Part shown: positions 1 through 51,842 of the stretch, piece by piece
Numbering within the stretch: the first letter of the stretch is position 1
Layout of the letters: every line of letters starts with the position of its first letter
Assembly: GCF_026626685.1 (NCBI RefSeq)
Contig: NZ_JAPNJX010000021.1
Coordinates: 169,329-233,328 of the forward strand
Source of the DNA: Nannocystis sp. SCPEA4
GTDB lineage: Bacteria; Myxococcota_A; Polyangia; Nannocystales; Nannocystaceae
Length of the DNA: 64,000 bases
Direction of reading: 5' to 3'
Notes under the pieces: model-generated
Seen by the model: the letters and a program-made list of their open reading frames with translations, nothing else
Database searches by the model: none
What the model was told of the DNA's origin: nothing
Made by a program: the position numbers and the translations under genes

Positions 1-1222
1 GGGACATGGGCAAAAGTTCAGGTAGCCAGTAGCGCGTCGCCAGGGCGGCCACCAGCACCCCGATCGAGGCGAACAGCGCCACCTCGCGCAGCCCCGGGAA
101 GCTGGTCCACGCCAGCCCGGCGAAGCCCGCCACCGTCGTCAGCGCCCCGAGCAACAGGCCCGGCCAGATCCGCCGCGCGCTCTGCCGCGGCCCGTCGCGC
201 GGCGGGTCGAGCATGTGGTGGTTGAACAGGTGCACCGAGTAGTCGATGCACACCCCGATCAGCGTCGCCCCGAACGCCAGCGTCAGCCCGTGCACCGACC
301 CGAACAGCGCCAGACAGGCCGCCAGCGCCGCCGCCACGCCCGCCACCAGCGGCGCCAGCGACAGCAGCACCAGCCGCGGCGAGCGGAACATCAGCAGGAA
401 CAGCGCGACGATGCCGACCAGCGAGACGGTGGAGATCCGGCCGATGTCCGCGCGCATGCTGGTCTCGGCCGCCAGCGCGAAGCGGGCCACGCCCGACTGC
501 TCGAGCACCAGGCGCCCGCCCGACTGGGCGTCGATCTCGGCGAAGGCCGCCTCGATCGCCGCCTGCAGCGGCGCCTGATCGGCGGCGTCGAACGGCGAGC
601 TGCGGGTCGCCAGCATCACCAGCGCGTGCTGGTCCTCGGCCACGAAGTGCCCGTCGCGCAGCCCGACCCCGCCGCCCTGGGCCGCCTCGAGCCGGCGCAG
701 CTGGGCCGGATAGGCCAACAGCGGGTCGGCCGGCGCGATCTGCTTGATCACCCCCGACGTCGGCAGACCGAGCTGGCGCCGCAGCTCGCGCGCCGCGGCC
801 CGCAGCCCGTCGTCGGACAACCTGTCCTGAAGGCCACCTGTCTCGTCGGCCAGGAGGAAGAACCGCCGCGGGTAGTACAGGTTGTGGATCGCCTCGGCGT
901 GCAGCTCGCCCGGCCCGGTGCGCAGCCACGCCACCTCGGAGCGGGTCTGCAGCCGGTCGGCCAGCGCCTGCGCCCCGGCGATGGCGACGTCGGGGTCGCC
1001 GTGCTCGTCGCTGACCGACAGCACCAGCGTGCGCGTCAGCTCCGAGCTGGCCATCCCGCGCGACAGCGCCGCCAGCTTGGGGTCGGCGACGTCGGCCATG
1101 AACGCCGTGATGTCGGTGACCACCTGCAGGCGCAGCGCGCAGAACGCCGCCAGCCCGGCCACCAGCGCCGCGCCGAGCCCTGCCCGCCACGCGCTCGCCC
1201 TGTCCGATCGACCAGGTTCCAT
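1..1222 (-). CDS. MMPL/RND-superfamily exporter (ApeM-like); 3'-truncated by the window edge; ATG start at 1222
   Basis: My own minus-strand translation in the frame starting at 1222 (MEPGRSDRASAWRAGLGAALVAGLAAFCALRLQVVTDITAFMADV... then a TM bundle ISTVSLVGIVALFLLMFRSPRLVLLSLAPLVAGVAAALAACLALFG...CIDYSVHLFNHHM) stays open to position 1. A TM1 + soluble loop + TM cluster layout fits MMPL exporters. The ORF is absent from the supplied track because it runs off the edge. Track ORF 18..1190 is an Arg/Gly-rich off-frame shadow. Confidence 0.55.
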   Translation of the reverse strand, partial: MEPGRSDRASAWRAGLGAALVAGLAAFCALRLQVVTDITAFMADVADPKLAALSRGMASSELTRTLVLSVSDEHGDPDVAIAGAQALADRLQTRSEVAWLRTGPGELHAEAIHNLYYPRRFFLLADETGGLQDRLSDDGLRAAARELRRQLGLPTSGVIKQIAPADPLLAYPAQLRRLEAAQGGGVGLRDGHFVAEDQHALVMLATRSSPFDAADQAPLQAAIEAAFAEIDAQSGGRLVLEQSGVARFALAAETSMRADIGRISTVSLVGIVALFLLMFRSPRLVLLSLAPLVAGVAAALAACLALFGSVHGLTLAFGATLIGVCIDYSVHLFNHHMLDPPRDGPRQSARRIWPGLLLGALTTVAGFAGLAWTSFPGLREVALFASIGVLVAALATRYWLPELLPMS

Positions 1223-1278
1223 CAGGCAGGTCCCATCAGCCAGGTCTCGTCAGGCAGGTCCATCCGCCGGACGCCGCG

Positions 1279-2004
1279 TCAGCGGCCCGCCGGCGGCGGC
1301 GCGGCCGGCTTCGGCGGCAGGCTGAACAGCGTCGTCTGCTCCTCGGCGGTGAACTTGCGCTGCGGGTCGACGGCCGAGAACGTGGTGACCGCCTCGTCGC
1401 CGCCGATCTCGACCACGCGCATCGTCGCGATCACGATCCCCTCGCCGGCGATCTCGACCCGCTCGATCAGCTTGTCGAGCGGCGCCAGCTTCGGCTTCAG
1501 CTTCAGCGTCCAGCGCTGGCCCTCGGACTTGAGCTCCATCGCGTACATCGTCGCCAGAGCCTCGCCGTCGCCGGCGAAGATCCGGACGAACGAGTCGACG
1601 AACAGCCGCACCGCCGGGCTCTTGTCGAGCGCAATCTCCTCGCGCCCGGCGTCGTCGGCCATCCGCAGCGCCGAGCCGTCGATCACCACCACCGAGCGCG
1701 CCGGCTTGGCCGTGTGCCGGGCCAGGCGCGACTTCTTGCCGTTGGGCACGAAGTAGATCGTGCCCTCGTTGACCAGCGGCGCCGCCAGCAGGGCCATCCG
1801 CTTCTCCTCGCGGAACGCCGCCTGCAGCCCGCTCATCCCGGCGAACCGGCCGAGCAGCTGCTCGAGCGTCAACGCGGCCGGCACCGGCGCGGCGGCCACC
1901 GGCAGCGGGTCGGTCGCGCCCGCCTGGCCGATCGAGCCGGTCATGACGACCACGACCGCGAGGACATGTCCGAACGGACCTGTCCGCAGGGATAGTAGCG
2001 ACAT
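1279..2004 (-). CDS. LolA-like outer-membrane lipoprotein carrier family protein (ApeL-like); signal peptide MSLLSLRTGPFGHVLAVVVVMTGSIGQAGA; alternative start at 2037
   Basis: The ORF-track protein has a signal-peptide-like N-terminus and the LolA-like size/composition (..TIYFVPNGKKSRLARHTAK..GEALATMYAMELKSEGQRWTLKLKPK..). It sits between the thioesterase and the MMPL exporter, as in aryl-polyene clusters. Confidence 0.45.
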   Translation of the reverse strand: MSLLSLRTGPFGHVLAVVVVMTGSIGQAGATDPLPVAAAPVPAALTLEQLLGRFAGMSGLQAAFREEKRMALLAAPLVNEGTIYFVPNGKKSRLARHTAKPARSVVVIDGSALRMADDAGREEIALDKSPAVRLFVDSFVRIFAGDGEALATMYAMELKSEGQRWTLKLKPKLAPLDKLIERVEIAGEGIVIATMRVVEIGGDEAVTTFSAVDPQRKFTAEEQTTLFSLPPKPAAPPPAGR

Positions 2005-3942: not shown

Positions 3943-4958
3943 TCCGACCTCCAGAACTCGTAGAAGTTGAACCAGTTGAGCGGCGCGAGGCGGCAGTAGT
4001 GCTCGAGGCGTTCGGCGTAGCGCTGGGCATGGGCGGCGGTGGCGGCCTCGCGGCGGCCCCTGGGCATTTCTAATTGTTCGGCGAAGGGCTCGCAATAAAG
4101 ATCGTAGCGGTCGGGCCCGTGGTACAGGCCGAAAGTCAAGTAAATCGGGCACTTTAGCAGCGCCGCGAGGGTGTACGGGCCGGTCGGGAAGCGCGCCGGG
4201 GCGCCGAGGAATTCGGCCGTGCAGGTCTTGTCGTTGACCCCGACCCGGTCGCCGAGCACCGCCACCAGCTCCCCGCGCTCGATCGCCTCCTTGGCGGTCA
4301 GGATGTAGCTCGTGTCACGCGGGTCGATCGGGATCACCCGCACGTCGAAGTCGGCCTGCACCGTGCGCAGGAAGTCGTTGATCATCTTCGCGTTCTGCCA
4401 GTACGCGAGGATGTGGATCGGGATCCGCTTGTCGACGCTGCTGGCCCGCATCGCCTCGAACGAGCCGAGGTGCGCCCCGAGCAGCAGCGCCCCCTTCCCC
4501 TCGGCCTGCAGCGCCCGCAGGTGCTCGATGCCGGTGTGGGTGATGCGGAACCGCCCGGTCTCGCCGCGGACCAGGAACACGCGGTCGAGCGCGCAGCGGG
4601 CGAACGTGTAGATGTGGCGCCAGCTGGCCCAGAACCCGTGCGGCTGGCCGATCCGCCGCAGGTAGTCCTGCGAGGCCCGCCGCGCCTTGCCGGCGAACAG
4701 CGCGTAGTAGAACGTGATCACGGCCAGCAGCACCCCGGCGCCGCGGCGGCCGAACACCCGGCAGAACAGCAGCGTCGCCCGGATCCCCAGCACCGTCCCG
4801 CGCTCGGGCCGGGTCATCCACGCCCGGTCGCCGTCGTCGGGCCTGACCGCCGGGACAGCCGACGCCGCGCTCCCGGGCCGCTCGCCCGCGCCCGCCGCGC
4901 CGCTCGCGTCGGGGATGACCGCGGGGACATGTCCCTTCGCGCCTGCCTCTTCCGCCAT
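3939..4958 (-). CDS. Lysophospholipid/lipid-A-type acyltransferase (ApeD-like); alternative start ATG 4817 (MTRPERG..)
   Basis: HtrB/LPLAT-like sequence (..FYYALFAGKARRASQDYLRRIG..GALLLGAHLGSFE..). The first 47 aa are Ala/Gly low complexity, so the true start may be 4817. Confidence 0.6.
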   Translation of the reverse strand: MAEEAGAKGHVPAVIPDASGAAGAGERPGSAASAVPAVRPDDGDRAWMTRPERGTVLGIRATLLFCRVFGRRGAGVLLAVITFYYALFAGKARRASQDYLRRIGQPHGFWASWRHIYTFARCALDRVFLVRGETGRFRITHTGIEHLRALQAEGKGALLLGAHLGSFEAMRASSVDKRIPIHILAYWQNAKMINDFLRTVQADFDVRVIPIDPRDTSYILTAKEAIERGELVAVLGDRVGVNDKTCTAEFLGAPARFPTGPYTLAALLKCPIYLTFGLYHGPDRYDLYCEPFAEQLEMPRGRREAATAAHAQRYAERLEHYCRLAPLNWFNFYEFWRSE

Positions 4959-4982
4959 GGCCGATCGAACCAGTCCTCTCGC

Positions 4983-5759
4983 TCAGCGGCTGGCCGGCAG
5001 CGCCGGGCGCCGCAGGCGGCGGTAGAGGTTGATCCACGGCCGCACCATCACCCGCTGGAACGACAGCCGGGTGTGCAGCCACGAGATCTTGAGGTTGTCG
5101 CCGAACACGCGGAAGTGCGACACCCCGCCCTCGTCGCGGCCGATGTAGCGGACCTTCGTCGGCAGGTTGATCACCGGCACCCCGGCCCACACCAGGCGCA
5201 CCGCCACCTCGATGTCGAAGTCCATGCGGTCGCCGGTGCGCCCGAGCGCCAGCGCGGGGTCCAGCGGGTAGACCCGGAAGCCGCACATCGGATCGGTGAT
5301 GACCCCGCGGCCGGCCTCGAAGTCGGTCCAGAACAGCGTGATCTTGCGGGCGACCAGCCGGCCCTTCGGCGCCGACGCGTCGTACACCGGCGCCCCGAGG
5401 ATCAGCGCGTCCGGCCGCTCGCGCGCGGTCGCCAGGAATTTCGGGATGTCCCCGAGGTCATGTTGCCCGTCGGCGTCGACCTGCAGCGCGTGGGTGTAGC
5501 CGAGCTCGCGCGCGAACTGGAACCCGGTCTTGACCGCCGCCCCCTTGCCGCCGTTTTGCGCCCGCCGGCGCACGTGCGCCAGCCCCTCGGCCCCCAGCGC
5601 CGCGACCGCCTGTCGCCCCGCCTCGCCGCTGCCGTCGTCGATCACGACCACGTCGGGCAGGTGCGCCTTGACCCGCAGCACCACGTCGCGGACCGTCCGC
5701 GGGTTGTCGTAGGTCGGGATCAGCGCGCACGGCCGGAACGCGCCTGTCCCGGCGAACAT
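4983..5759 (-). CDS. Family-2 glycosyltransferase; start at MFAGTGAF (5759); track ORF extends to GTG 5816
   Basis: CALIPTYDNPRTV...VVVIDDGSGE...QVDADGQHD (DxD) ...GFRVYPL are GT2 signatures. GAAGGGG lies 8 nt upstream of the 5759 ATG. The N-terminal extension in the track is made of the repeated GGACATGTCC element. Confidence 0.7.
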   Translation of the reverse strand: MFAGTGAFRPCALIPTYDNPRTVRDVVLRVKAHLPDVVVIDDGSGEAGRQAVAALGAEGLAHVRRRAQNGGKGAAVKTGFQFARELGYTHALQVDADGQHDLGDIPKFLATARERPDALILGAPVYDASAPKGRLVARKITLFWTDFEAGRGVITDPMCGFRVYPLDPALALGRTGDRMDFDIEVAVRLVWAGVPVINLPTKVRYIGRDEGGVSHFRVFGDNLKISWLHTRLSFQRVMVRPWINLYRRLRRPALPASR

Positions 5760-5808
5760 CTCAGCTGCCCCTTCGGACATCTCGTTTTCACCTGTCCCTG
5801 CGGACATG

Positions 5809-7656
5809 TCAGCCACCGTGCGCCTCGTACTCGAGCGCCCCGGCGGTGACCACCTCGCCCGCGCGCGCCAGCGAGAAGCGGACGCTCGTGCCCCGCACCT
5901 CGAGCCGCAGCACCAGCGCGTCGCCCGGCGCGATCGGCCGGGTGAACTTGAGCCGCGCCGCCTGCCGCAGCCGCCCCAGCTCGGGCCGCAGCGCCGCCAC
6001 CTGCGGCACCACCAGGGCCGTCAGCTGCGCCACCCCGGGCAGCACCGGCGCGCCGTCGAAGTGCCCGCGGAAGAACGCCAGGTCGACCGGCACCCCGACC
6101 TCGACCTCGTGCACCGCCGTGTCGCCCGCGTCGCGCCGCACGTGCCCGCGCAGCTCGAACCCGATCGCAGCTTGGCCCGCCGAGTCTCGCGCAGCTCCGT
6201 GGCCAGCACGCGGCCCATCGCGCCTGGTCGCCGTCGGCTCGGATCCGCCGCGCCCTGCGTCATCCGGCTCCTCCGCCGTCAGCCCGAGCAGCGCGTGCAG
6301 GCGCCGCTTCGTCAGCTTGCCGTTGGGCTCGCGCGGCAGCGCGGGCACCACCTTGATCCGCCGCGGCACCACCACCGGGTCGAACCACGGGAGCAGCCCC
6401 CGCCGCAGCTCGGCCACCAGCTCGCTGGCGTCGCGACCCGAGTCGCGGGCCACCACCGCGGCCATCAATTCGTGCCCGCGGGCGCCAGGCGTCTCGATCG
6501 CCACCACCGCCGCGTCGGCCACCGCCGGCAACGCCAGCAGCCGCTGCTCGACCTCCGCCACGGCCACCCGCTTGCCGGCGACCTTCACCACCCCGTCGAG
6601 CCGCCCGCGCAGGTGAAACCCGCCGCGCGCGTCGAGCTCGACCCGATCCTCGCAGGGGTACGGCGACGGCGCGTCGGGGGCCAGGAACGGCGAGCGCAGC
6701 AGCAGCCGCCCCTCGGCCGCGACCTCGACCGCGACCCCCGGCAGCGGCGTCCAGGCTGGCTCCGGGGACATGTCCCCTAAAACCTGTTCGTGCCGCCGCC
6801 AGCCGATCCCGCCGGTCTCCGACGAGCCGTACACCTCGGTCACCGCCAGCCCGAGCTGGGCCAGCAGCTCGTCGGCGGTCGCCCGCGGCAGCGGCGCGCC
6901 CGACGAGAACACCCGCCGCAGCGGCGGCAGGTCGCCGCGCTGCAGCACCGTCAGCCCGCGCAGGTGCGCCGGCGTGCTGATCAGCACCGTCGCCCCGACC
7001 TCGCGCGCCGCCCTCGCCACCGTCTCGGCGTGCAGCGGCGTCTCGCGGGCGAACGCCGCCCCCGCGGCCAGCGGCGCCAGCACCCCGAACAGCAGCCCGT
7101 AGAGGTGGTACGGCGGCACCGTCGCCAGCGCCACCTCGCCGGCCGCCAGCGCGAACGTGGCCGCCAGCGCCTGCGCCTCGCCGAGCAATTGCCCGGCCGT
7201 CTTGGCGCACGGCTGGTGGTCGCCGGTGCTGCCCGAGGTGTACACGACCGCCAGCCGCCGGTCCGCCGGCAGCGCTTCGGGCCATGTCGGATCGACCATG
7301 TCCCCAGGGGCATGTCCGGACAGCCAGTCGCGGACGTCCTGGGCGTCGGCCAGATCGGAGTCGTGGATCAGCGCCACCACGTCGGCGCGCCCCGCCAGCT
7401 CGCGCACCGCCGCCGGCTGGGCGTTCGGCGGCAGCGCGACCGCGTGGCCGCGCAGCCACGCGCCCAGGGCCGTGACCGCCAGGTGATAGCGGTCGCCGCA
7501 GACCACCAGCACCTCGCTGCCGGGCCGCGCCGGCGGCAGGCGCTCGGCGACGAGGCTCGCGTCGCGCATCAGTTCGCCCGCGCTGCGCGGGCCGGCCTCG
7601 CCGACGGCGACGCGCGCCGCGGGATCGGTGTGGACGAGCGGGACGAAGGACCTCAT
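5809..7656 (-). CDS. AMP-dependent synthetase/ligase fused in frame to a FabA/FabZ-like hotdog dehydratase (ApeH-ApeI-like)
   Basis: AMP-binding motifs VVYTSGSTGDHQPCAKT, YGSSETGG, PNGKLTKRRL. After a ~40-aa linker comes the dehydratase motif AFFRGHFDGAPVLPGV. Start ATG 7656 overlaps the upstream stop (ATGA). The first 200 aa of the 815-aa track ORF are a shadow of the upstream membrane-protein gene. Confidence 0.7.
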   Translation of the reverse strand: MRSFVPLVHTDPAARVAVGEAGPRSAGELMRDASLVAERLPPARPGSEVLVVCGDRYHLAVTALGAWLRGHAVALPPNAQPAAVRELAGRADVVALIHDSDLADAQDVRDWLSGHAPGDMVDPTWPEALPADRRLAVVYTSGSTGDHQPCAKTAGQLLGEAQALAATFALAAGEVALATVPPYHLYGLLFGVLAPLAAGAAFARETPLHAETVARAAREVGATVLISTPAHLRGLTVLQRGDLPPLRRVFSSGAPLPRATADELLAQLGLAVTEVYGSSETGGIGWRRHEQVLGDMSPEPAWTPLPGVAVEVAAEGRLLLRSPFLAPDAPSPYPCEDRVELDARGGFHLRGRLDGVVKVAGKRVAVAEVEQRLLALPAVADAAVVAIETPGARGHELMAAVVARDSGRDASELVAELRRGLLPWFDPVVVPRRIKVVPALPREPNGKLTKRRLHALLGLTAEEPDDAGRGGSEPTATRRDGPRAGHGAARDSAGQAAIGFELRGHVRRDAGDTAVHEVEVGVPVDLAFFRGHFDGAPVLPGVAQLTALVVPQVAALRPELGRLRQAARLKFTRPIAPGDALVLRLEVRGTSVRFSLARAGEVVTAGALEYEAHGG

Positions 7657-8610: not shown

Positions 8611-8782
8611 GGGGTCGGCGCATCCTACGGGGATCGCCCGGGACACGACAAGCCTCGCCCTTCCCCCTCCGTGGACACCCGAGCGCCGCGTGCTTTGCCC
8701 CACCGACACGGCGCAAGCTCACATCTTCGGGCTGGCTCTTGGTGCAGGCGGCTCCGGCGGCCTCTCGTACGCTCGCCGCCCC

Positions 8783-9562
8783 ATGACAAGCACCAATTCA
8801 CCGCGGATCGCCATCGTCACCGGCGGCGGCAACGGCATCGGCCGCGCCACCGCCCGCATGCTCGCCGACGCCGGCTACGCCGTCGCCGTGTGGGACCTGG
8901 CCGAACAGGCAGCCGAGGAGGTCGTGTCCGCGATCACCGCCGCCGGCGGCGTCGCCATCGCCCGCAAGGTCGACGTCACCAAGCCCGAGGACTGCGTCGC
9001 CGCGGCCGCCGCCGTGGTCGAGCGGTTCGGCCGCATCGACGTCCTCATCAACAACGCCGGGGTCGTCCGCGACGGCCAGCTGGTCAAGGTCAAGGACGGA
9101 CAGGTGGTCGGCCAGATGAGCGCCGAGCAGTTCCAGTTCGTCCTCGATGTCTGCCTCAAGGGCGTGTTCAACTGCACCCAGGCGGTCGTGCCGACCATGA
9201 TCGCCCAGAAGTACGGCCGCATCATCAGCACCAGCTCGGTCGTCGCCCTCTACGGCAACTTCGGCCAGACCAACTACGTCGCCGCCAAGGCCGGCGTGAT
9301 CGGCATGACGCGCGTATGGGCGCGCGAGCTCGGCCGTTACGGCATCACCGCCAACGTCGTCGCCCCGGGTTTCATCTCGACCGACATGGTCAAGAGCATC
9401 CCCGAGAAGGTGCTGCAGTCGATGATCGAGCACACCCCGGTCGGGCGCGCGGGTCAGCCCGACGACATCGCTCGCGCCTACCTCTTCCTCGCGGACGAGA
9501 AGTCGAGCTTCATCACCGGCGCCACTTTGAGCGTCGACGGCGGCTCGGTCCTCGGCACCTGA
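8783..9562 (+). CDS. fabG: 3-oxoacyl-ACP reductase (SDR family, FabG-like)
   Basis: RIAIVTGGGNGIGRATA (TGxxxGxG), NNAG, catalytic Y..K (YVAAKAGV), and PG motif (VAPGFISTDM). Start at the in-frame ATG 8783. It is divergent from the ACP gene. Confidence 0.8.
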   Translation: MTSTNSPRIAIVTGGGNGIGRATARMLADAGYAVAVWDLAEQAAEEVVSAITAAGGVAIARKVDVTKPEDCVAAAAAVVERFGRIDVLINNAGVVRDGQLVKVKDGQVVGQMSAEQFQFVLDVCLKGVFNCTQAVVPTMIAQKYGRIISTSSVVALYGNFGQTNYVAAKAGVIGMTRVWARELGRYGITANVVAPGFISTDMVKSIPEKVLQSMIEHTPVGRAGQPDDIARAYLFLADEKSSFITGATLSVDGGSVLGT

Positions 9563-11527: not shown

Positions 11528-11864
11528 TCCAAAGCGGTGCAGATCCGTGTGGCCCGCGCCACACGGCGACCCGCCGCGCTTGAACCCCGGTCAACAGCGC
11601 GAACCCGCCCCGCGCTTGGCCCAGTTACTGAATGTAGTTCGAGACGGCGACGACGACCGGGCGAGGTTCCGGCGATCGATGCGAGATCCCCAGCTCGTGG
11701 ACACTCGACCGGAGCTGGCGCGAACGACATGTCCATGCGGACATATGTCCACGGGCAGTTCCGCCCCCGGGGCCCGCTGTTCATGGCTGTCTCTTGCGAC
11801 ATGTCCACTCGGACATTCCCGAGCTCCGCCGCGGACACCAACCTCGGCCGCCGGAGCGACTCGC

Positions 11865-12464
11865 TCACTCGACCGCGATCGTCAGCTCGAACGGCTCGCC
11901 CTTGCGGGTCCCGGCGATCGTCCAGCGATCGAGCAAGCGCATCCGCGAGTACAGCCGCAGCGCCGCGTCGATGCCGTCGATCGGCTCGCCGTTGACGCTG
12001 CGCACCAGATCGCCGTTCTTGAAGCCGAAGAGCGCCAGCGGCGAGCCGGCGCGGATGGAGTACAGGTTGAACCCGACCGTCTTCCCGTCTCGCATCGCCG
12101 GGATCACGCGGGCCAGCCGGGGCGCCGTTTCCGGCGCCGCCACGAACGCGTCGAACTCGGCGCGCTTCACCACGCACACGCCGGCGTTGCACACCGGCGT
12201 CAGCGGCGAATCCTCCCGCGGGGCTGCCGGCGCCGGCAGCTCCGGCGCGCTCGGCCGCTTGGACCCCTCCTGGCACACCTGCAGCGCGACCTGCTGCTTC
12301 ACCAGATCGGCCTTCAGCGCCTCGATCTGCGCCCGGTGCTCGGCGAGCAGCGCCGACGTCGCCGCCAGCTCGGCCTGCAGCGCCGCCCGCTCGCGCCCGA
12401 CCGGGTCGCAGCCGAGCAGCATCAGCCCCACGAACGACCACGCGCCTGTCCGTCGCCTCGCCAT
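11865..12464 (-). CDS. PDZ-domain lipoprotein (GspC-like/periplasmic), lipobox LLGC
   Basis: MARRRTGAWSFVGLMLLGCD gives a signal peptide plus lipobox Cys. A coiled-coil segment follows, then the PDZ-like segment GFNLYSIRAGSPLALFGFKNGDLVRSVNGEPI. Start placed at ATG 12464, within the longer track ORF. Confidence 0.5.
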   Translation of the reverse strand: MARRRTGAWSFVGLMLLGCDPVGRERAALQAELAATSALLAEHRAQIEALKADLVKQQVALQVCQEGSKRPSAPELPAPAAPREDSPLTPVCNAGVCVVKRAEFDAFVAAPETAPRLARVIPAMRDGKTVGFNLYSIRAGSPLALFGFKNGDLVRSVNGEPIDGIDAALRLYSRMRLLDRWTIAGTRKGEPFELTIAVE

Positions 12465-12520
12465 CACGGGCGACTGAAGCACGACCGCCCCGCCGGCGAC
12501 AAGCGCGCTACAGTCCGCGC

Positions 12521-12736
12521 ATGACCCTCCCTGCCGAGCCCCGCGAGCCGCTGCTGCTGGCCCTGCGCCGCACGGACCCCGCCGCCTTCCGCCGCGAGGT
12601 CCGGGCCGTCCTGGCAGCCCAGGCCAGCGTGAGCGCCGGCGCGCGCGCCCTCGGCCTGCGCGAGGCCACCCTGCGCGACCTGCTCGCGGCCGACCCCGAG
12701 CTCGGCCGTGGCCTGGACCTCGACGACTGGCCTTGA
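12521..12736 (+). CDS. Small hypothetical protein (71 aa), possibly HTH-like
   Basis: The ORF ends immediately before the 14-bp phased CATG array. Its codon usage is compatible with the genome, and I found no homology to a known family. Confidence 0.3.
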   Translation: MTLPAEPREPLLLALRRTDPAAFRREVRAVLAAQASVSAGARALGLREATLRDLLAADPELGRGLDLDDWP

Positions 12737-12820
12737 GGCCATGCTCTGAAGGACACATCCGTCCCGTCTGACGCGCCAGGTCATGCCCTTCAGAACATGT
12801 CCTTGAGACCATGTTGCGAC
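12737..12820 (+). repeat. Array of six 14-bp phased units (G-R-M-CATG-TCC + 4 nt); CATG at 12740, (12756 degenerate), 12782, 12796, 12810
   Basis: Counted directly: ggcCATGctctgaa / ggacaCATCcgtcc / .. / ggtCATGcccttca / gaaCATGtccttga / gacCATGttgcgac. The array also contains the inverted repeats CTGAAGG/CCTTCAG. Confidence 0.5.
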
Positions 12821-12857
12821 GACTGACAACCCCGACTCCGCGTGCGACACTCGGCCC

Positions 12858-13283
12858 ATGCAGCAGCCGGTCGTCATCAGCGAACAGGAGCTCGACCGCC
12901 GCCACGGCACCCGCGCCCGCCTCGCCTCCGGCGGCGTCTACGGCTGCGCCTGCGCGGTGTACGAGGGCGACCTCACCGTCGACGGCGACGCCTGGCTCGG
13001 CGACGAGCACTGGTCGCAGCTGCAGCTCGCCGCCGCCCCGCAGGACATCGGCACCATCGCCGTCACCGGCAACCTCATCGTCCGCGGCGAGCTCCGCGTG
13101 TCCGACCGCCTGATGTGCGCCGTCGTCCTCGGCGATCTCGTGGCCCGCGCGCTCTTCATCTTCGAGACCGAGTTCTACGTCGGCGGTGACCTGCGGGTCG
13201 ATCGCCTCCAGGACCGCGACGACTACCTCACCGTCGTCGGCGAGCGCGTGGTGGCCGAGCCGGACGTGACCGGCGACGACTGA
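12858..13283 (+). CDS. Hypothetical protein (141 aa)
   Basis: The ORF has good codon usage. GNLIVRGELRV/VLGDLVARAL repeats could be a small beta-helical (bactofilin-like) fold, which is a weak guess. Confidence 0.4.
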   Translation: MQQPVVISEQELDRRHGTRARLASGGVYGCACAVYEGDLTVDGDAWLGDEHWSQLQLAAAPQDIGTIAVTGNLIVRGELRVSDRLMCAVVLGDLVARALFIFETEFYVGGDLRVDRLQDRDDYLTVVGERVVAEPDVTGDD

Positions 13284-13364
13284 GCCGCAGTGGGCGTGAG
13301 CACATGTCCTTTCGGACATGACACGCTCTGGCCCACGCGAGCACCGCGGCGCCGCTCGTGCGGC

Positions 13365-16073
13365 TCACTTGCGCCGCTTCGCCCGCACCACGCAGCGCGC
13401 CGCGACCTGCGGGCGGAACAGCGTGCGGGCCAGCGTCCACACCGCCTCGGCGGTGACCGCCCGGACCCGCTGCGGGTAGGCGAACGCGCGCGCCCGCGGC
13501 AGCCCGTACACCTCCGACAGCGCCAGCAGCGACGCCATCCGGCTGCGGCGCTGCTGCCCGAGCTCGAACTGGCCGACCAGCCACGCCTGCGCGCGCGCCA
13601 CCTCGGCCGGCGACGGCGGCTCCCGCACCGCGCGCTCGACCTCCGCCGCGATCGCGGCCAGCGCCTTCGGCAGCTTGTCCTGGCTGGTCGACGCGTGGAT
13701 CGCCACGTGGCCGGCGTCGACGCCCTCGACGCTCGACATCGACACCTCGTACACCAGCCCCTGGACCTCGCGCAGCGCCGTGAACAGCCGCCCCGTCTGG
13801 CCCCCGAGCACCGCGCTGAGCACGTCGAGCGCCGGCTCGCGCTCGTCGCCGACGGCGATCCCCGGCCAGCCGAGGGCGATGTGGGCCTGCTCGCGGTCCT
13901 GGAAGATCTCGCGCTCGCGCGGCCCTCGCGGCGCCTGCACCGGCTTCGCCTTGCCTGGCCCTTCAGGCATCCTGTCCCAAAGGCCAGCCTCGCGCAGCGC
14001 CGCCTCGACCTGGGCCGCCGCCGCCGCGACGTCGACGTCGCCCGCCAGCGCCAGCACCGCCTGCCCGATCGGGTAGTCGCGCCGCCACAGCGCCTTCAAT
14101 TTGGCCGGCGTCAGCGCCCGCAGCCCCTCGGGCGTGCCGCGGACCGGGCGGCTGAACGGATGCTCGCCGTACAGGAGCTTGTGCAGCCCGCGGGACGCCA
14201 CCTGGCCCGGGTCGTCGACCTCGGCCGCCAGATCCTGCAGGGCCACGCGCCGCTCCTCGTCGAGCTCGTCGGCCGCGAACGTCGGCGTGATCGTGCAGTC
14301 GAGCGCGTGCCCGAGCACCGCCGGGAAGTGCCGCGCCAGGCACTCGAAGTGCAGCCCGAGGCTGTTGCGGCCGGCGAACCCGTCGAGCCCCGCCGCCATG
14401 CCGTCGATCGCCCGGCTCAGCGCCTCGCCGCCCGTGCGCGCGTTGCCGCGGGTGAGCAGGGCCGCGGCCACCGAATTCGAGCCGGCCAGCGCGGCCGACT
14501 CGCGCCGCTGTCCCCCGGGCCAGATCAGCCAACCCGCCGCCACCGGCACCGCCGGCTCGACCCGCGCCAGCAGCCGCAGCCCGTTCGGCAGCGTCAGCGT
14601 GTCGATCCCGTCGGGCGCCCGCTTCGGCGCCGGTCCGCCGCGCCGCGGCCCCTCCGCCGGCTTCAGCGCGGCGTCGACGGCGGTCTTGACGGACCTGGCC
14701 TTGGCGACATCCACCTCGGCGCGCGGCAGCTCGAGGCTGACGCACGCGTGCGCCGGATCGAGCCAGCGCGCGCAGGCCGAGCGGACCGCCTCCGGCGTCA
14801 ACGCGGCCAGGGCCGCGTAGTACTCGCGCTCGCGCGCCAGGTCGCCGAAGATCGTGGCGCACGCACCCAGCGCGTGCGCCTGGCCCTGCACCGTCTCGCG
14901 CCGGTACACCAGGTCGCTCTCGAGGATCGCCTTGGCCCGCGCCAGCTCCTCGGGCGACACCGACGCCGCCGCCAGCCGCCGCACCTGGGTCAGCACCGCC
15001 GTCACCGCCGCGGCCGCCTGGGCCGCGGTCGTGCGCGCCGACACCAGCAGGGACCCGCCGAGCCGCAGCGTGTCGCAGTGGGCCTGGATGTCCGAAACGA
15101 CCTGTTCTTTGCGCCGTGTCTCGGCGACCAGGCGCGACGACTCGCCGTTGCCGAGCACCACCGCCGCGGCGTCGATCGCCGCCGCGTCGGCCGCTCCGGC
15201 CGCGGGCGCCGGCCAGGCCAGCAGCACGTAGGCCTCCTGGACCTCGGCGCGCTTCACCGTCACCCCGGGCCGCGGCGCCGGCTCACCCGTCGGCCGCCGG
15301 GCCGGCGCGGCCGGCAGCGCTCCGACGGTCGCCCGCGCCACCTTGCGCAGCGCCGCCACGTCGACCGCGCCGACGGCCACCAGCGTCAGCCGCTCGCCCG
15401 CGTAGGCCCGGCGGTGATAGGCCCGCAGCCGCGTCGCCGTGTGGCCGGCGACCTCGGCCTCGAGCCCCAGCACCGGCCGCGCGTACGCGTGCGTCCCGTA
15501 CACCCGCTCGAGCGCCGCCTGCGTCACCCGCTGGCCCGGGTCGTCGTCGTACTGCTTGATCTCCTCGATCACCACCTCGCGCTCCTGCGCCAGCGTGGTC
15601 GGGTCGAGCGTCGGGTGCAGCGTCGCCGCGGCGATCAGCGCCGCCGCCTCGGCCGCCCGCGCCGCCGGGGCCGTCACGTGCACCACCGTCTCGTCGTGGC
15701 TGGTGAACGCGTTGATGTCGCCGCCGAGCGCCTCGATCGCCCCCGCGAGGTCGAGCGCCGGCTCGGCCCGCCGCACCCCGGCCTTCGCCAGGCGCGCGCG
15801 GATGCTCTTCGGGCCATGTCCCAGAGCACATGGCTTGAAGAGCATGTGCTCGAGCAGGTGGGCGCAGCCGTGCTCGTCCGGGCGCTCGGCCGCGGTCCCC
15901 GACCCCACCCACAGCTGGATCGCCGCCGGTCCGGCGCCGGCCGGGCGCGCCGGCAGGATCAGCAGGCGGGCGCCGTTGGCCAGGCGCTCGTCGATGAGCG
16001 AGGCGAATTCGGAGGCGGCACCCGGAAGATCGAGGCCGCGGGGCGAGGGAGGCGAGACGGGCAGATCGGGCAC
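13365..16073 (-). CDS. M16 (pitrilysin/insulinase) family zinc peptidase, two tandem M16 units
   Basis: The HxxEH zinc motif is in GCAHLLEHMLFKP. The 902 aa contain a second inactive-type M16 half (..GSNSVAAALLTRGNARTGGE..). Confidence 0.8.
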   Translation of the reverse strand: MPDLPVSPPSPRGLDLPGAASEFASLIDERLANGARLLILPARPAGAGPAAIQLWVGSGTAAERPDEHGCAHLLEHMLFKPCALGHGPKSIRARLAKAGVRRAEPALDLAGAIEALGGDINAFTSHDETVVHVTAPAARAAEAAALIAAATLHPTLDPTTLAQEREVVIEEIKQYDDDPGQRVTQAALERVYGTHAYARPVLGLEAEVAGHTATRLRAYHRRAYAGERLTLVAVGAVDVAALRKVARATVGALPAAPARRPTGEPAPRPGVTVKRAEVQEAYVLLAWPAPAAGAADAAAIDAAAVVLGNGESSRLVAETRRKEQVVSDIQAHCDTLRLGGSLLVSARTTAAQAAAAVTAVLTQVRRLAAASVSPEELARAKAILESDLVYRRETVQGQAHALGACATIFGDLAREREYYAALAALTPEAVRSACARWLDPAHACVSLELPRAEVDVAKARSVKTAVDAALKPAEGPRRGGPAPKRAPDGIDTLTLPNGLRLLARVEPAVPVAAGWLIWPGGQRRESAALAGSNSVAAALLTRGNARTGGEALSRAIDGMAAGLDGFAGRNSLGLHFECLARHFPAVLGHALDCTITPTFAADELDEERRVALQDLAAEVDDPGQVASRGLHKLLYGEHPFSRPVRGTPEGLRALTPAKLKALWRRDYPIGQAVLALAGDVDVAAAAAQVEAALREAGLWDRMPEGPGKAKPVQAPRGPREREIFQDREQAHIALGWPGIAVGDEREPALDVLSAVLGGQTGRLFTALREVQGLVYEVSMSSVEGVDAGHVAIHASTSQDKLPKALAAIAAEVERAVREPPSPAEVARAQAWLVGQFELGQQRRSRMASLLALSEVYGLPRARAFAYPQRVRAVTAEAVWTLARTLFRPQVAARCVVRAKRRK

Positions 16074-16310
16074 GGTGTTGCTCGCCGCCCGCCTGTCGCG
16101 CGCGGCGCCCCCTCATACCCCGAGTCGCCGCCGCGCGCATCCTCGCCCGCGACCCGCGCCGCCCGGCGATCGCCCCGGCGCCCGCAGCTCGTCGACCCGT
16201 GACCGGCCTCGACGGCGCCGCGATCCGCCGTTTCCCGCGTCTTCCAGGCCCTTCCGCGCCTCCCCGGCCTGCCCGCGTCGCGTCCGCGCCCGGCACGGCT
16301 CCGCGCCCCG

Positions 16311-16754: not shown

Positions 16755-18548
16755 GTGCTCTCCCCGACTCTCGCGTTGCGCTGCCCACATTGCCAGCACG
16801 CGCTCGGGCTCGCCGACATCCGCGGTGCCGCCACCTGCCCGGCCTGCGGTCAGGATCACGGTCTGCCGCCGGCCGTCGCCGACGCGCTCGCCCTGTACGA
16901 GCGGGCCATCCAGCAGGCCGTCAGCGATCTGGTCCGCAGCGCACCTGTCCCAACAGTCAGCCCGGAGCCCGACCCCGATCCCGCGGAAATCGCGCCGGCC
17001 CAGACCCGAGCCTACGCGCCCAGCGAGCCGGGCCCCTCGGCCAGACTGCTCGGCGCGCCGGTCCATCCCACCACCCTGCTGGCGATCGGCCCCGCCCCCG
17101 CGCCGCCCGCCCCCGGTCCCGCGAATCCTGTCCCCAAGGACAGCTACGAGCCGATGCCGGGCGAGACCATGCGCGCGCCGGTCCCCGCCAGGCCCGGCCC
17201 CGCCACCCTGTCGGGCCAGCTCGCCGCCCGCCCGCCGGTCCCCGGGCACAAGCCCGGCTCGCTCGCGGCCGAGCTGGCCGCCGGCCTCGCCGCCGAGGGC
17301 CTCGCCGCCGAGCCGGCCCCGGCCAGCGTGTTCGCCCACCTCTCGCCGCCCGCCGACCCACCTGTCCCTGCGGACAGCCACCCGTCGCCTGTCCCTGCGG
17401 CCAGCCTCGAACGCCCTGTCCCTGCGGCCAGCCCACATGTCCCTGCGGACATGTCCCCCGACGTCCCGCTCCTGCCGGCCTTCGACCCGGCGGCCCTGTC
17501 CGGCCCGCTGCCGGCCCCGCAACCACCTGCCCTTTCGACCAGCCCCGTCGGCGCCGGCGACACCATCCCCGGCACCGGCCCCTCGAACTCCTCGCTGCTG
17601 GCGATCCTCTACAACCGCTCCGGCGCCAGCCTGAGCACCCCCTCGTCGACGGCAGGCCTGGCCGCCCCGCCCGGCGGGCTGGCCGAGGCGCCGCTGCTGG
17701 TCACCGCCGTGCGCGATCCGGCCGACGGTCCACCTGTCCGATCGACCAGCGAGCTCGTCGCCGCCGTCCGCTCCTTCCTCCCCGATCGGCCCGACGCCGC
17801 CGAGCCCGAGCCCGAGGGCCGGATCCCCGCCAGCGCCCTCGCCGTGGCCCGCCGGGCCCTCCTGGCCCGCCACGCCGACGAGCGCCGCCAGCAGCAGGTC
17901 CGCGACGGCGGCTCCGGCCTGCTGCTCGCCGCCGTCGTCTGCCTCGTCCTCGTCGCGTTCGGCCTGTGGTACGTCGCCGCCCCGATCGCCGTGCTCGCCG
18001 TCCTCCTCCGCCTGCGCCGGGAGGAGCGCGGCGAGCGGTTCGGCGCCGAGGTCCAGCGCCTCGGCGAGGCCCTCGGCGGCCAGCGCCTGCCCAGCTACGA
18101 CGCCATCGCCGCGTGGTTCGACGGCCTGTGGCCCGCCCCCGTCAGCCCCGAGGCGATGTGGACCAGCCACCTGCACGGGGCCGTCCGCTGCCACGTCCAC
18201 GGCTACGCCGCCCTGGTCGACGTCCACCTGAACGAAAAGACAGCCGGCGGCGTCGTCTACCCGCCGCGGATCACCGCCTACCTGGCGGCGATCTGGCCCG
18301 GCCGCGTGCCGACGCTGCGCCCGTCCGCCACCGACCTCTCGCCGGAGGCCCAGGCCCGCCTCACGCGCCTGCGCAAGGCCGGCTACACCGTCGTCGCCGA
18401 CGGTCACGGCGGCCTCATCATGCGCGCCAGCGAGTCGATCGCCCAGGCCGCGCGGGCCGACATCACCCGCCTGCCCGCGCTGCAGGTCCCGATCGGCGAG
18501 CTCGCCGACCTCGCCCGCGATCTCGGCGCCGAGCCGGTCGTCCCGTAG
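16755..18548 (+). CDS. Zn-ribbon (CPHC..CPAC) / Pro-rich linker / single-TM / C-terminal domain protein of unknown function
   Basis: The N-terminus carries a CxxC-x17-CxxC pattern. A ~300-aa Pro/Ala-rich region has PVPAD/PVPAAS repeats encoded by CCTGTCCCTGCGGACAG-type DNA repeats. The TM helix is LLLAAVVCLVLVAFGLWYVAAPIAVLAVLL. Confidence 0.6.
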   Translation: MLSPTLALRCPHCQHALGLADIRGAATCPACGQDHGLPPAVADALALYERAIQQAVSDLVRSAPVPTVSPEPDPDPAEIAPAQTRAYAPSEPGPSARLLGAPVHPTTLLAIGPAPAPPAPGPANPVPKDSYEPMPGETMRAPVPARPGPATLSGQLAARPPVPGHKPGSLAAELAAGLAAEGLAAEPAPASVFAHLSPPADPPVPADSHPSPVPAASLERPVPAASPHVPADMSPDVPLLPAFDPAALSGPLPAPQPPALSTSPVGAGDTIPGTGPSNSSLLAILYNRSGASLSTPSSTAGLAAPPGGLAEAPLLVTAVRDPADGPPVRSTSELVAAVRSFLPDRPDAAEPEPEGRIPASALAVARRALLARHADERRQQQVRDGGSGLLLAAVVCLVLVAFGLWYVAAPIAVLAVLLRLRREERGERFGAEVQRLGEALGGQRLPSYDAIAAWFDGLWPAPVSPEAMWTSHLHGAVRCHVHGYAALVDVHLNEKTAGGVVYPPRITAYLAAIWPGRVPTLRPSATDLSPEAQARLTRLRKAGYTVVADGHGGLIMRASESIAQAARADITRLPALQVPIGELADLARDLGAEPVVP

Positions 18549-45685: not shown

Positions 45686-45727
45686 GAACATGTGCTGAAA
45701 GACATGTTTTCAGAGACATGCCAGTGC
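45686..45727 (+). repeat. Three 14-bp phased CATG units (CATG at 45689, 45703, 45717) with hairpin CTGAAAGACATGTTTTCAG
   Basis: gaaCATGtgctgaa / agaCATGttttcag / agaCATGccagtgc, counted directly. It is intergenic, upstream of the 45321 gene. Confidence 0.45.
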
Positions 45728-51630: not shown

Positions 51631-51842
51631 GTTCGCCGCGATCTTATCCGGACCGCCGCGGCCTCGCCAGCCGGTCTCGCCGAATCTTCACCCGCATCCC
51701 CTGCGCGCGATCATGACTCATGCCCCAAAGGACATGTGGATGATTGATGGCAGCGACTTGTCGCGCGGGGGTCTCGTGCTAATCCGACGATCGATCGCTC
51801 TCGCGTAGCCACTGACGATTCCCTCCGCACATTGTCCCGCCC

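Follow-up and report, generated by a model that had tools for sequence, protein, structure and literature searches.

The 64,000-nt stretch of DNA from Nannocystis sp. SCPEA4 that was analyzed here (the window) carries members of a genus-specific family of short hairpin-forming repeats that has not been described before. The repeat unit consists of the 10-bp palindrome GGACATGTCC and four variable bases. Two neighboring units pair into a hairpin whose stem measures 10-12 bp and whose loop measures 4 nt, and longer arrays are the same 14-bp lattice, extended or decayed in place. We give roughly even chances to the view that these arrays are lineage-specific short interspersed palindromic repeats of Nannocystis, which are REP-like, untagged, and located at the 3' ends of genes.

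Results

A preliminary description of this DNA had reported that CATG recurs at an exact 14-bp period, and this periodicity was confirmed. The motif CATG-N10-CATG was found 11 times in the window, compared with a mean of 0.62-0.68 in dinucleotide-preserving shuffles (shuffle maxima 4-5). Five CATG pairs were spaced by 28, and all remaining spacings from 1 to 60 (except 14) were represented by three pairs or fewer. When at most one mismatch was permitted, GGACATGTCC was found 15 times in the window (2.08 in shuffles) and TGTCC-N4-GGACA 25 times (1.72 in shuffles). The reported excess of GACATGTC, given as at least 6 copies against about 0.5 expected, also held, in that 8 exact copies were found against 1.01 expected from shuffles; the two palindromes named there, GGGGACATGTCCCC at 6764-6777 and GGGACATGTCCC at 4924-4935, were both present. 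The array positions listed were all correct except for the pair given as 51738/51752, which lies at 51719/51733. Arrays additional to that list were found at 7283/7297/7311, 15815/15829/15843, and 17436/17450, along with a five-unit lattice of a CAGG variant at 1198-1263.

The spacing proved equally rigid in the Nannocystis sample, where the distance from unit to unit was 14 in 150 cases, 13 in one, and 15 in one. The arrangement TGTCC-N-GGACA had four intervening bases in 269 cases, with three cases or fewer for any other length from 0 to 12. It had been remarked that 14 bp matches neither the helical repeat nor the codon phase of DNA, which is correct; the period arises because a 10-bp self-complementary arm is joined to a 4-nt loop, as in a hairpin, and three units (42 bp) restore the reading frame. 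Because the arm is itself palindromic, the transcripts of both strands carry the identical stem. In 104 isolated pairs, the bases flanking the stem were complementary in 58% and 51% of cases, compared with 29% expected, and both unit-centered (16-31% along the unit axis) and direct-repeat relations were at background. The hairpin axis is the relevant symmetry.

Array size ranged from one to six units, with single units making up 118 of 364 arrays; isolated perfect singles numbered 22, and extension of their palindrome was weak. The best-conserved positions of the unit were the C and G of CATG. Degenerate copies had changed on one side far more often (593) than on both sides (80), and compensatory changes from arm to arm numbered 48, a weak excess over the shuffled null (mean 32.7, maximum 51); arm covariation was therefore dropped as proof of RNA structure. 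The loops showed a YYRR bias, such that each unit reads RR-GGACATGTCC-YY. Beyond this bias, the loops of 102 perfect pairs were near random (the commonest occurred in 6 of 102), and the flanks were unrelated between copies. Some arrays were true tandem 14-mers in which the same N4 was repeated (L003, L050, and L081). Neither a GTAG/CGTC tag nor any other conserved tetranucleotide was detected in the flanks of 237 arrays; none of the four array-adjacent flank bases exceeded 0.4, and the outer peaks (up to 0.57) matched decayed neighbor units.

Intergenic copies folded better than shuffled sequences, with z from -2.2 to -4.1 (weaker, at -1.3, for the focal array and that at 45686). Arrays in coding sequence that are conserved across species folded no better than shuffles, and their conservation is thus left unexplained by an RNA hairpin. 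There was no U-tract 3' of the hairpin; T frequency was 0.11-0.35 at +1 to +12, without a T run. In a consensus scan of 20 kb, canonical U-tract terminators were not enriched (3 versus 3.7 expected), and none lay at arrays. Rfam gave no gathering-score match in the window and only chance-level matches (E ~0.6) in 11500-13500, by which a known RNA family was ruled out.

A search of 185,579 species genomes for exact GGACATGTCC-N4-GGACATGTCC returned 103 matches, 98 of which were from Nannocystis or Nannocystaceae; of the other five, a single Myxococcales MAG contributed two and unrelated taxa three. The preliminary description had allowed that the arrays might be confined to one local duplicated segment. 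They were found to be spread along entire chromosomes in at least 8 Nannocystis genomes, and its suggestion of a short-repeat element family was supported, the motif being a genus-wide interspersed repeat. The orthologous locus of Nannocystaceae ST9 contained no unit over 21.8 kb. Perfect 10-mers occurred at about 58-62 per Mb, compared with about 1 per Mb by our base-composition estimate, and ~0.9 Mb of sampled Nannocystis DNA yielded 502 units when one mismatch or none was allowed. By extrapolation from this sample, each 11-13-Mb genome would hold hundreds or thousands of copies.

The median distance of an array was 33 bp past the closest stop codon, as against 640 bp to the closest start. 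Gene calls were crude and GC3-based, which blurs the distinction among convergent, tandem, and divergent regions; by these calls there were 9.1 units per kb in convergent intergenic regions, 1.4 in tandem and 0.8 in divergent ones, and 0.18 in coding sequence. When ascertained seeds were excluded, an array was carried by 48% of convergent, 13% of tandem, and 11% of divergent intergenic regions, and the convergent enrichment exceeded the 2:1 expected per 3' end. The earlier proposal that promoter regions carry binding arrays for a dimeric regulator is unsupported as it was stated. The arrays are overwhelmingly at gene 3' ends, the extrapolated copy number per genome is very high, and arrays also occur within coding sequence. 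Recognition by some sequence-specific dimeric factor is nonetheless plausible. Some arrays sat at operon junctions, and others were translated in protein linkers ("RDMSAGT"). Single units within coding sequence fell in the only codon-bias-compatible frame, Asp-Met-Ser, in 35 of 47 cases, so that many of them may be coincidental.

The arrays of the window are listed in Table 1. The focal array begins straight after the TGA (12734-12736) that closes a 71-aa ORF, and a 141-aa ORF follows it at 12858-13283. Tandem Repeats Finder (TRF) returned a period of 14 at 12782-12814, and the region folded as one long imperfect hairpin (-28 kcal/mol, z = -1.3). Downstream, the hairpin at 13300 lies in the gap where the 141-aa ORF (stop 13283) and an M16 peptidase gene (stop 13365) converge; its RNA fold was -20.1 kcal/mol (z = -4.1; 0 of 200 shuffles were as good), and the hairpin is conserved in N. 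radixulma. The two arrays beginning at 11725 and 11797 had fold z of -2.2 and -2.7. The array at 1948 (fold z = -2.6) ends ~4-18 nt before the start codon (1944) of the LolA-like gene, and the CAGG-variant lattice was returned by TRF with period 14, 3.5 copies, and 82% matches.

Table 1. Palindromic arrays and unit-like sequences in the window.
Feature	Position	Strand	Context and units
CAGG-variant five-unit lattice	1198..1263	minus	LolA-like/MMPL intercistronic gap; e.g., AGGCAGGTCC-catc
Thioesterase/LolA-like junction array	1948..1985	minus	GGACATGTCC-gaac-GGACCTGTCC and a decayed third unit
LpxL-like acyltransferase 5'-end units	4911..4976	minus	unit-like GGCCATGGCG includes start codon 4958
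AMP-ligase/glycosyltransferase junction	5740..5811	minus	five degenerate units in two registers
AMP-ligase units in coding sequence	6766..6789	minus	read E-Q-V-L-G-D-M-S
AMP-ligase three-unit array in coding sequence	7280..7317	minus	three 14-bp lattice positions, 42 bp
Two arrays	11725-11762 and 11797-11820		convergent, between a 590-aa ORF (stop 11527) and a PDZ-domain gene (stop 11865)
Focal array	12737..12816		six-position lattice in one 14-bp register (12737, 12751, decayed 12765, 12779, 12793, 12807); GGCCATGCTC, GGACACATCC, decayed position, GGTCATGCCC, GAACATGTCC, GACCATGTTG
Two-unit hairpin	13300..13323		GCACATGTCC-tttc-GGACATGACA
M16 peptidase 5'-end array	15812..15849	minus	three units; fold z = -1.9; identical in N. 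radixulma
Linker repeats	17363..17456		TGTCC-ctgc-GGACA every 27 bp, the last being CCACATGTCC-ctgc-GGACATGTCC
Intergenic degenerate units	45686..45723		GAACATGTGC-tgaa-AGACATGTTT-tcag-AGACATGCCA; fold z = -1.3
Divergent-region degenerate units	51716..51739		ACTCATGCCC-caaa-GGACATGTGG; overlap a candidate start codon of a minus-strand gene

Several units coincide with coding sequence. The unit TGACATGTCC supplies the ATG that is annotated as the start codon of the GT2 gene (5807). In the acyltransferase gene, a perfect GGACATGTCC at 4925-4934 is translated as G-H-V; this 10-mer is identical in 6 of 6 species, its codons GGA and CAT are non-preferred, and neighboring codons vary. The second of the AMP-ligase units at 6766 is broken in SCPEA4 by three clustered synonymous changes (GTTTTA versus GTCCTC). 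The three-unit array at 7280 is present in 6 of 6 species, its units are read in all three frames (G-H-A-P-G-D-M-V-D-P-T-W), and it showed no excess RNA folding (z = +0.6). That it might be an in-frame 42-bp insertion into the ligase was considered and rejected, since the protein alignment showed no insertion relative to homologues of 65-73% identity. The repeats at 17363 are translated within a Pro/Ala-rich linker (PVPAD...HVPADMS). The GNAT/HlyD label of the region around 51716 is that of the preliminary description, the genes of this region lying outside the annotation made here.

At orthologous sites in different species, for which both members of each pair had been ascertained through the perfect pattern, the two 10-mers were identical, the loop differed at 1-3 of its 4 bases, and the surrounding intergenic DNA was unalignable. 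A less biased sample was provided by the loci orthologous to the window from four more species, and the less biased cases L044/L048 and L056/L090 showed decay. The number of units at one junction varies by species. At the thioesterase/LolA-like junction, an array of 2-4 units was present in 6 of 6 Nannocystis genomes. The AMP-ligase/glycosyltransferase junction of Nannocystis species measures 98-277 bp and contains units; that of the non-Nannocystis relative L109 has 50 bp and no motif. An interdomain linker of the ligase contains 0-5 lineage-specific translated units depending on the species. Long intergenic regions showed fast turnover and length change. The region 11725..11820 was longer in N. 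radixulma by 285 bp, consisting of further motif-bearing units, and measured 575-1515 bp, rich in TGTCC-N4-GGACA, in other species. Strain-level indels and a 2.35-kb insertion coincided with arrays, the insertion carrying two genes in N. radixulma and lying within the focal array; rearrangement breakpoints were also located at arrays.

Discussion

From the position of the arrays and the folding of intergenic copies, we infer that the REP-like repeats act at the RNA level. Arrays would be transcribed at gene 3' ends and cistron boundaries, where the hairpins (in RNA, possibly also in single-stranded DNA) would end or protect transcripts as bidirectional, U-tract-independent terminators or 3'-end stabilizers. 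The units are probably recognized by a sequence-specific factor, and such a putative factor would keep both the stem sequence and the 4-nt spacing invariant. New copies could arise via local slippage or duplication, through which the family may have spread into tolerant coding linkers as well. Several observations count against this reading. There is no U-tract after the hairpin, compensatory changes exceed the shuffled null weakly while most degenerate copies are altered on one side, and 11% of divergent, promoter-side regions carry arrays. Also, a hairpin selected for stability only would tolerate loops of 3, 5, or 6 nt and any stem, and self-complementary arms are more typical of sites at which homodimers bind double-stranded DNA.

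A further step, which we offer only tentatively, would be to regard the lattice as the code by which a putative factor specific to Nannocystis recognizes a helix of two-fold symmetry (a double-stranded RNA stem or duplex DNA) as a strand-symmetric mark of the end of a gene. If so, a factor-dependent mark would replace U-tract terminators in these genomes of 71% G+C and 11-13 Mb, and selection at the nucleotide level would keep the mark even over start codons and coding sequence. In arrays of at least three units, alternative pairings, some with a downstream start codon, could couple termination to translation of the next cistron.

Three other accounts of the family as a whole were weighed against the REP-like reading. 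The units might be duplex DNA sites for a homodimeric protein (nucleoid-associated, gyrase-type, insulator, or roadblock), with each 10-bp palindrome bound, the 14-bp phasing reflecting cooperative binding, and the hairpin potential a by-product; arrays would then mark or relax the DNA between converging transcription units. BIME-2 elements of E. coli bind gyrase. This account, which we consider unlikely, accommodates the perfect CATG-centered palindrome of each arm with its best-conserved C and G, the base-pair-exact spacing, the loop bias by which each unit is extended to RR-GGACATGTCC-YY, the existence of single units, the convergent enrichment above 2:1, and the conservation within coding sequence that lacks an RNA-folding signal. 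It is opposed by the complementarity outside the units, which follows the hairpin axis and not the unit axis, and by the isolated perfect singles, which are few and extend the palindrome weakly. Many of the single units, those of coding sequence being mostly in the frame that codon bias allows, may be coincidental, and no candidate protein is known. We think it unlikely that the repeats are selfish or neutral and serve the host in no way. They would then be a miniature mobile or self-expanding palindrome, mobilized by a RAYT/IS200-like transposase or spread through slippage and fold-back synthesis, that accumulates where insertions are tolerated (after stops, between convergent genes, in disordered linkers). 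Such an origin would fit the least harmful locations that the arrays occupy, the mostly one-sided decay of degenerate copies, the quick turnover and length change in long intergenic regions, the variable copy number in the protein linker and at junctions, the true tandem 14-mers, and the breakpoints at arrays. Perfect copies, however, share neither loop nor flanks and so lack the copy-and-paste signature of a defined element, and the conserved GTAG/CGTC tag is absent. Moreover, 10-mers that stay perfect at orthologous sites while their loops diverge call for selection or a homogenizing drive. When E. coli RayT was compared with ~1 Mb of sampled Nannocystis DNA (~1% of the genomes), there was no phmmer hit and the best tblastn E was 0.07.

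CATG is a common methyltransferase target, and inverted pairs of the DNA uptake sequence (DUS) lie downstream of genes with variable sequence between the copies. Both facts bear on the third account, in which the 10-mer would be an iterated palindrome of the HIP1 type or a DUS-like sequence, its excess kept by a methyltransferase- or repair-associated drive acting at CATG or ACATGT, or else by a bias in DNA uptake, and its pairs serving secondarily as terminators. The variable loops and the pairs downstream of genes resemble those of DUS. HIP1 is over-represented 15-300-fold and conserved between species (PMC5861425); the Nannocystis motif is likewise conserved within and between ORFs, and its over-representation, which rests partly on our composition estimate, falls inside that range. 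We nevertheless hold this account to be improbable. HIP1 and DUS have no fixed spacing between neighbors, whereas the Nannocystis spacing is invariant; HIP1 has no gene-level positional bias (PMC5861425), whereas the density of the Nannocystis motif in convergent intergenic DNA is about 50 times that in coding DNA; and the flanks are complementary along the hairpin axis. Hardly credible is the idea that a pathway-specific regulator (e.g., PadR-type) uses the arrays as operators to control the aryl-polyene-like gene cluster, which lies within the window's first 10 kb. PadR-type operators occur singly or in small number in the promoter of a padR-linked target gene and have the consensus ATGT-N8-ACAT, which two ACATGT spaced by 14 bp formally reproduce, and units are concentrated at 1.2-17.5 kb of the window and around the starts of several genes in that cluster. 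The same arrays, however, occur genome-wide in unrelated contexts, mostly after stop codons, and also within coding regions and protein linkers; a scan of 20 flanking ORFs revealed neither a PadR domain nor any other regulator gene. A cluster-specific regulon was ruled out by the genome-wide scan, the positional statistics, and the lack of a neighboring regulator.

Nannocystis genomes are among the largest of bacteria and are mined for natural products. A genus-specific tag at about half of convergent gene boundaries can aid their annotation, helping to place gene ends, choose among start codons, and recognize falsely fused ORFs. The family is also a likely hotspot of indels and rearrangement, biosynthetic clusters included. 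Protein linkers acquire lineage-specific peptide repeats from it, and it offers a convenient starting point in the search for a factor that would read it. With its fixed arms and free loops, the rigid 10+4 architecture is unusually strict compared with the REP elements of other bacteria and constrains models of how such repeats are generated and maintained.

The family stands between REP hairpins, uptake-sequence pairs, and highly iterated palindromes, classes that are usually handled separately. As with the REP/BIME elements of Enterobacteria, Pseudomonas, and Stenotrophomonas, which are short (20-40 bp), G+C-rich palindromic repeats present in more than 100 copies per genome, the two-unit Nannocystis element measures 24-28 bp, lies downstream of ORFs and between convergent or unidirectional genes, is often arrayed and occasionally intragenic, is lineage-specific, and is plausibly transcribed as an RNA hairpin. 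REPs carry a conserved unpaired GTAG or CGTC tetranucleotide at one end of the palindrome, and "untagged" REP-like families also exist (Di Nocera et al. 2013, PMC3733652). Copies of a REP have the sequence of the entire element in common, loop included, and a cognate RAYT (Y1 transposase) gene commonly has repeats on either side. The Nannocystis family differs in that it has no such tag, its loop and flanks are not conserved between copies, its arms are each perfect palindromes (the element is identical on both strands), and it follows a fixed 14-bp lattice; the absence of the tag and of shared loops ruled out a classical REP/REPIN. Uptake sequences are over-represented 9-12-mers; Neisseria DUS and Haemophilus USS share with the Nannocystis family a conserved 10-mer in ~1,000 or more copies per genome, inverted pairs just downstream of genes that form terminator-like hairpins around non-conserved bases, and copies in coding regions as well; however, they are not self-complementary, their pair spacing is variable, and their excess is tied to natural competence, whereas no observation made here connects the Nannocystis motif with uptake. 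HIP1 of cyanobacteria (GCGATCGC / GGCGATCGCC) resembles it as a perfect palindrome of 8-10 bp in tens- to hundreds-fold excess (PMC5861425, PMC4390886) that is restricted to its clade and conserved across species, whether within ORFs or outside them, but is scattered, without 3'-end bias or fixed spacing, and tied to orphan methyltransferases, in contrast to the 14-bp-phased arrays at gene ends described here.

Rickettsia palindromic elements (RPE) and intragenic REPs likewise lie in frame within genes and are translated as extra peptides in tolerant regions. RPE are 100-150 bp and conserved over their full length, whereas the translated Nannocystis pieces are 10-24 bp (RDMSAGT, HVxxDMS) and reside in low-complexity linkers. 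An intrinsic terminator is also a G+C-rich hairpin tens of bases past a stop codon, and a symmetric one could serve both strands; the Nannocystis hairpin has no U-tract, which ruled out the canonical form, and its stem is conserved genome-wide with a fixed loop length. A CRISPR array was ruled out by the repeat of 10 bp, the spacer of 4 bp, and the 1-6 units, as CRISPR repeats are 23-50 bp and alternate with unique spacers of about equal length. In a search of the literature, no publication tied Nannocystis to repeats of this kind. The string GGACATGTCC was encountered there only as the consensus of the p53 half-site, which is a coincidence.

Periodicity of CATG in the window

The preliminary description had reported that CATG recurs at a 14-bp period. 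When the window (64 kb, 71.4% G+C) was compared with 100 shuffles preserving dinucleotides, 11 CATG pairs were found at exactly 14 bp, versus a mean of 0.62-0.68 and a maximum of 5 in the shuffles, confirming the claim. The second commonest spacing was 28 bp (5 pairs). Moreover, GACATGTC was present in 8 copies (1.0 expected), GGACATGTCC with at most one mismatch in 15 (2.1 expected), and TGTCC-N4-GGACA with at most one mismatch in 25 (1.7 expected). The arrays listed in that description were real and their coordinates correct, except for a pair placed at 51738/51752 that actually lies at 51719/51733; the list was incomplete, lacking the additional arrays and the CAGG-variant lattice given in the table.

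Features of the window and of compared stretches (window coordinates unless a handle is given)
Feature	Position	Description
Aryl-polyene-like cluster	1-9562	mostly minus strand
CAGG-variant lattice	1198-1263	
In-frame indel relative to N. radixulma	4853-4924	72 bp; acyltransferase N-terminus, next to the 4925 unit; flanked by direct repeat TGACCGCSGGGACA
Synonymous differences in AMP-ligase gene	6780-6785	three, clustered; GTT TTA (Val-Leu) vs GTC CTC in N. radixulma
Additional arrays	7280; 15812; 17433	
Difference from N. radixulma	11858-11864	285 bp of extra motif-bearing units in N. radixulma
Focal array	12737-12816	six positions in one 14-bp register, third decayed; begins immediately 3' of TGA stop
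N. radixulma insertion	12752-12820; L001 (N. radixulma) 14246-16596	2.35 kb, two genes; exactly inside focal array
Tandem repeat	16353-16582	2.5 copies, periods 53 and 70 bp, 93% matches; upstream of Pro/Ala-rich ORF
Pro/Ala-rich ORF	16755-18548	
Multi-module NRPS	21547-38817	single ORF, 5756 aa
Motif in long ORF	L023 (N. punicea) 6158-6272	CCCTGCGGACATGTCCGCC unit every 57 bp
Spaced hairpins	L074 (N. bainbridge) 6596-6703	two-unit hairpins every 42 bp; 18-nt linkers mutually unrelated; 14-bp register held though each third position is not motif-like

Taxonomic range

One genome per species, from 185,579 bacterial and archaeal species, was scanned for exact GGACATGTCC-N4-GGACATGTCC. Among the 103 matching stretches, 98 belonged to Nannocystis species or Nannocystaceae MAGs (named genomes: exedens, pusilla, punicea, bainbridge, radixulma, and RBIL2), two to a single Myxococcales MAG, and three, approximately the chance level, to unrelated taxa. 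Matches were dispersed over whole chromosomes, and at the orthologous locus of the more distant Nannocystaceae member ST9 (49% protein identity) there were no units in 21.8 kb. The motif is therefore a genome-wide, genus-level repeat family, in agreement with the short-repeat element family that had been among the options raised earlier. The genome-wide spread rules out a cluster-specific signal as well as local duplication, and the arrays are thus not confined to one duplicated segment, one of the findings that had been named as refuting the preliminary description. The N. radixulma locus was 95-98% identical to the window in DNA, and the ketoreductase of the window was identical to one from that species; the AMP-ligase matched that of Nannocystis sp. 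SCPEA4 at 100% identity.

Anatomy of the unit

Unit structure was determined in approximately 0.9 Mb of Nannocystis DNA, comprising the fetched loci and the window. In each unit, four bases follow the self-complementary 10-mer GGACATGTCC. Units were separated by 14 bp in 150 cases and by 13 or 15 bp in one case each; distances of 28, 42, or 56 bp were found 63, 52, and 16 times, respectively. In TGTCC-N-GGACA, N was 4 in 269 cases, every other value from 0 to 12 occurring at most 3 times, and in GGACA-N-TGTCC, N was 0 in 281 cases (otherwise at most 5). Arrays contained 1 to 6 units, most commonly two (182/364 arrays). The C and G of CATG were the best-conserved positions, and the 4-nt loop was near random, its sole bias being YYRR.

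In 104 isolated pairs, the bases at the two positions immediately flanking the pair were mutually complementary in 58% and 51% (29% expected), and unit-centred and direct-repeat relations were at background level. The element is thus a hairpin whose stem spans 10-12 bp and whose 4-nt loop is the symmetry axis. The 14-bp period is accounted for by a 10-bp arm plus the loop; it takes three units (42 bp) to return to the same reading frame. In the window, intergenic copies folded clearly better than shuffled controls (z of -2.2 to -4.1), and arm-to-arm compensatory changes were only weakly in excess (48, compared with 32.7 on average and at most 51 under the null). Flanks past the outermost recognisable units had the faded composition of more units, in register; arrays thus decay by substitution with the lattice retained.

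Position relative to genes

According to crude GC3-based gene calls, unit density was 9.1 per kb in convergent, 1.4 in tandem, and 0.8 in divergent intergenic regions, and 0.18 in coding sequence; with seeds excluded, an array was present in 48%, 13%, and 11% of the three intergenic classes, respectively. By the same calls, the median distance of arrays outside genes was 33 bp to the closest stop codon and 640 bp to the closest start. A search for a U-tract 3' of the hairpin, or for a GTAG or CGTC tag at it, revealed none, and canonical U-tract terminators showed no enrichment within the window's first 20 kb.

The aryl-polyene-like cluster, which was syntenic in every Nannocystis genome examined, encodes MMPL, a LolA-like protein, a thioesterase, an aromatic amino-acid lyase, an LpxL-like acyltransferase, a GT2 glycosyltransferase, an AMP-ligase fused to an ApeI/FabA-like dehydratase, an ACP, and a ketoreductase. 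When the window was compared with N. exedens, N. pusilla, N. punicea, N. bainbridge, and N. radixulma, arrays at the thioesterase/LolA-like, glycosyltransferase/acyltransferase, and ligase/glycosyltransferase junctions were kept in 6/6 genomes with differing unit numbers. An array at the LolA-like/MMPL junction was seen in the window, the species comparison having covered the other three. In L109, from a non-Nannocystis relative, the junctions were tight and without the motif. For several downstream genes, the start codon was the ATG of a unit.

Evolutionary behaviour

At sites common to different species (compared stretches L024/L083/L084, L032/L057, L028/L096, and L039/L098), both 10-mers were identical and loops differed at 1-3 of 4 positions; the 10-mer identity is biased, both members having been ascertained via the perfect pattern. 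The surrounding intergenic DNA was unalignable between species. The less biased pairs L044/L048 and L056/L090 showed decay or register shift. Long intergenic regions change fast (81-900 bp and 121-2402 bp across species), and those of every species compared retained some motif copies. The 285 bp of extra units, the 2.35-kb insertion, and the 72-bp indel that set the window apart from N. radixulma all coincided with arrays. The insertion, with its epoxide-hydrolase-like and LysR regulator genes, was absent from N. exedens, N. pusilla, and N. punicea as well as from the window, and the G+C-rich acyltransferase N-terminal segment differed in length by 0-200 bp across six species. Perfect copies within one genome did not share loops or flanks and so bear no mark of copy-and-paste spread of a defined element.

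Classification and interpretation

The family is not a CRISPR array; a canonical terminator was rejected given the absent U-tract, an Rfam family because the search returned no match, and a HIP1-type scattered palindrome on account of the fixed spacing and 3'-end bias. It resembles REPs in size, copy number, and position (PMC3733652), but differs in tag and shared sequence, and no RAYT was matched in the small sample of approximately 1 Mb of Nannocystis DNA. In the literature, the sole occurrence found for the 10-mer was the p53 half-site consensus, a coincidental likeness, and our search found no publication describing the family. We classify it as untagged REP-like palindromic repeats: a real and clean finding, in which the class is familiar and the family itself undescribed. 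Its notable features are the rigid 10+4 lattice, self-complementary arms, fixed arms with free loops, and translated linker copies.

The best-supported reading is that of REP-like, hairpin-forming interspersed repeats that are specific to Nannocystis and cluster at the 3' ends of genes and at the boundaries of cistrons. As a proposed function, the hairpin would act after transcription, ending or protecting transcripts in a genome without U-tract terminators, and the fixed stem sequence and loop length may reflect recognition by a putative sequence-specific factor. Because the arm is self-complementary, the stem is identical on both strands, a property suited to an element between convergent genes.

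Four rival explanations are less probable. Duplex-DNA sites for a homodimeric protein are supported by the palindromic nature of the arm, by its exact phasing, and by sequence conserved within genes where folding is not in excess; flank complementarity along the hairpin axis weakens this reading. Selfish or neutral palindromes could account for the tolerated locations and the turnover; however, arms that are conserved next to freely varying loops, together with the lacking copy-paste signature, argue against them. A HIP1- or DUS-like drive would have over-representation and conservation in common with the family, but fixed spacing is a feature of neither HIP1 nor DUS, and HIP1 shows no bias towards 3' ends (PMC5861425). 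Operators of a cluster-specific regulator are contradicted by the distribution of arrays.

Units inside coding sequence

Among single units within coding sequence, 35/47 were in the frame G GAC ATG TCC (Asp-Met-Ser). Because this alone fits the codon bias of the genome, many of them probably reflect coincidence or mere tolerance. Arrays of two units translate as His-Val-x-x-Asp-Met-Ser. The AMP-ligase/dehydratase fusion protein carries 0-5 translated units ('RDMSAGT') in its interdomain linker, depending on species, and motif DNA encodes the 'PVPAD...HVPADMS' repeats of the Pro/Ala-rich ORF. At the acyltransferase N-terminus, one perfect 10-mer was identical in six species, with non-preferred codons GGA and CAT and variable adjoining codons. 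The synonymous differences in the AMP-ligase gene, where TTA is a very rare codon, destroy or create the second motif unit there.

The 57-bp spacing in the N. punicea ORF points to a motif-based peptide repeat of 19 aa. The tandem repeat has a partial counterpart in N. radixulma. The NRPS ORF, whose first 4000 aa contain at least four condensation, at least four adenylation, and at least three carrier domains, is almost without motif units.
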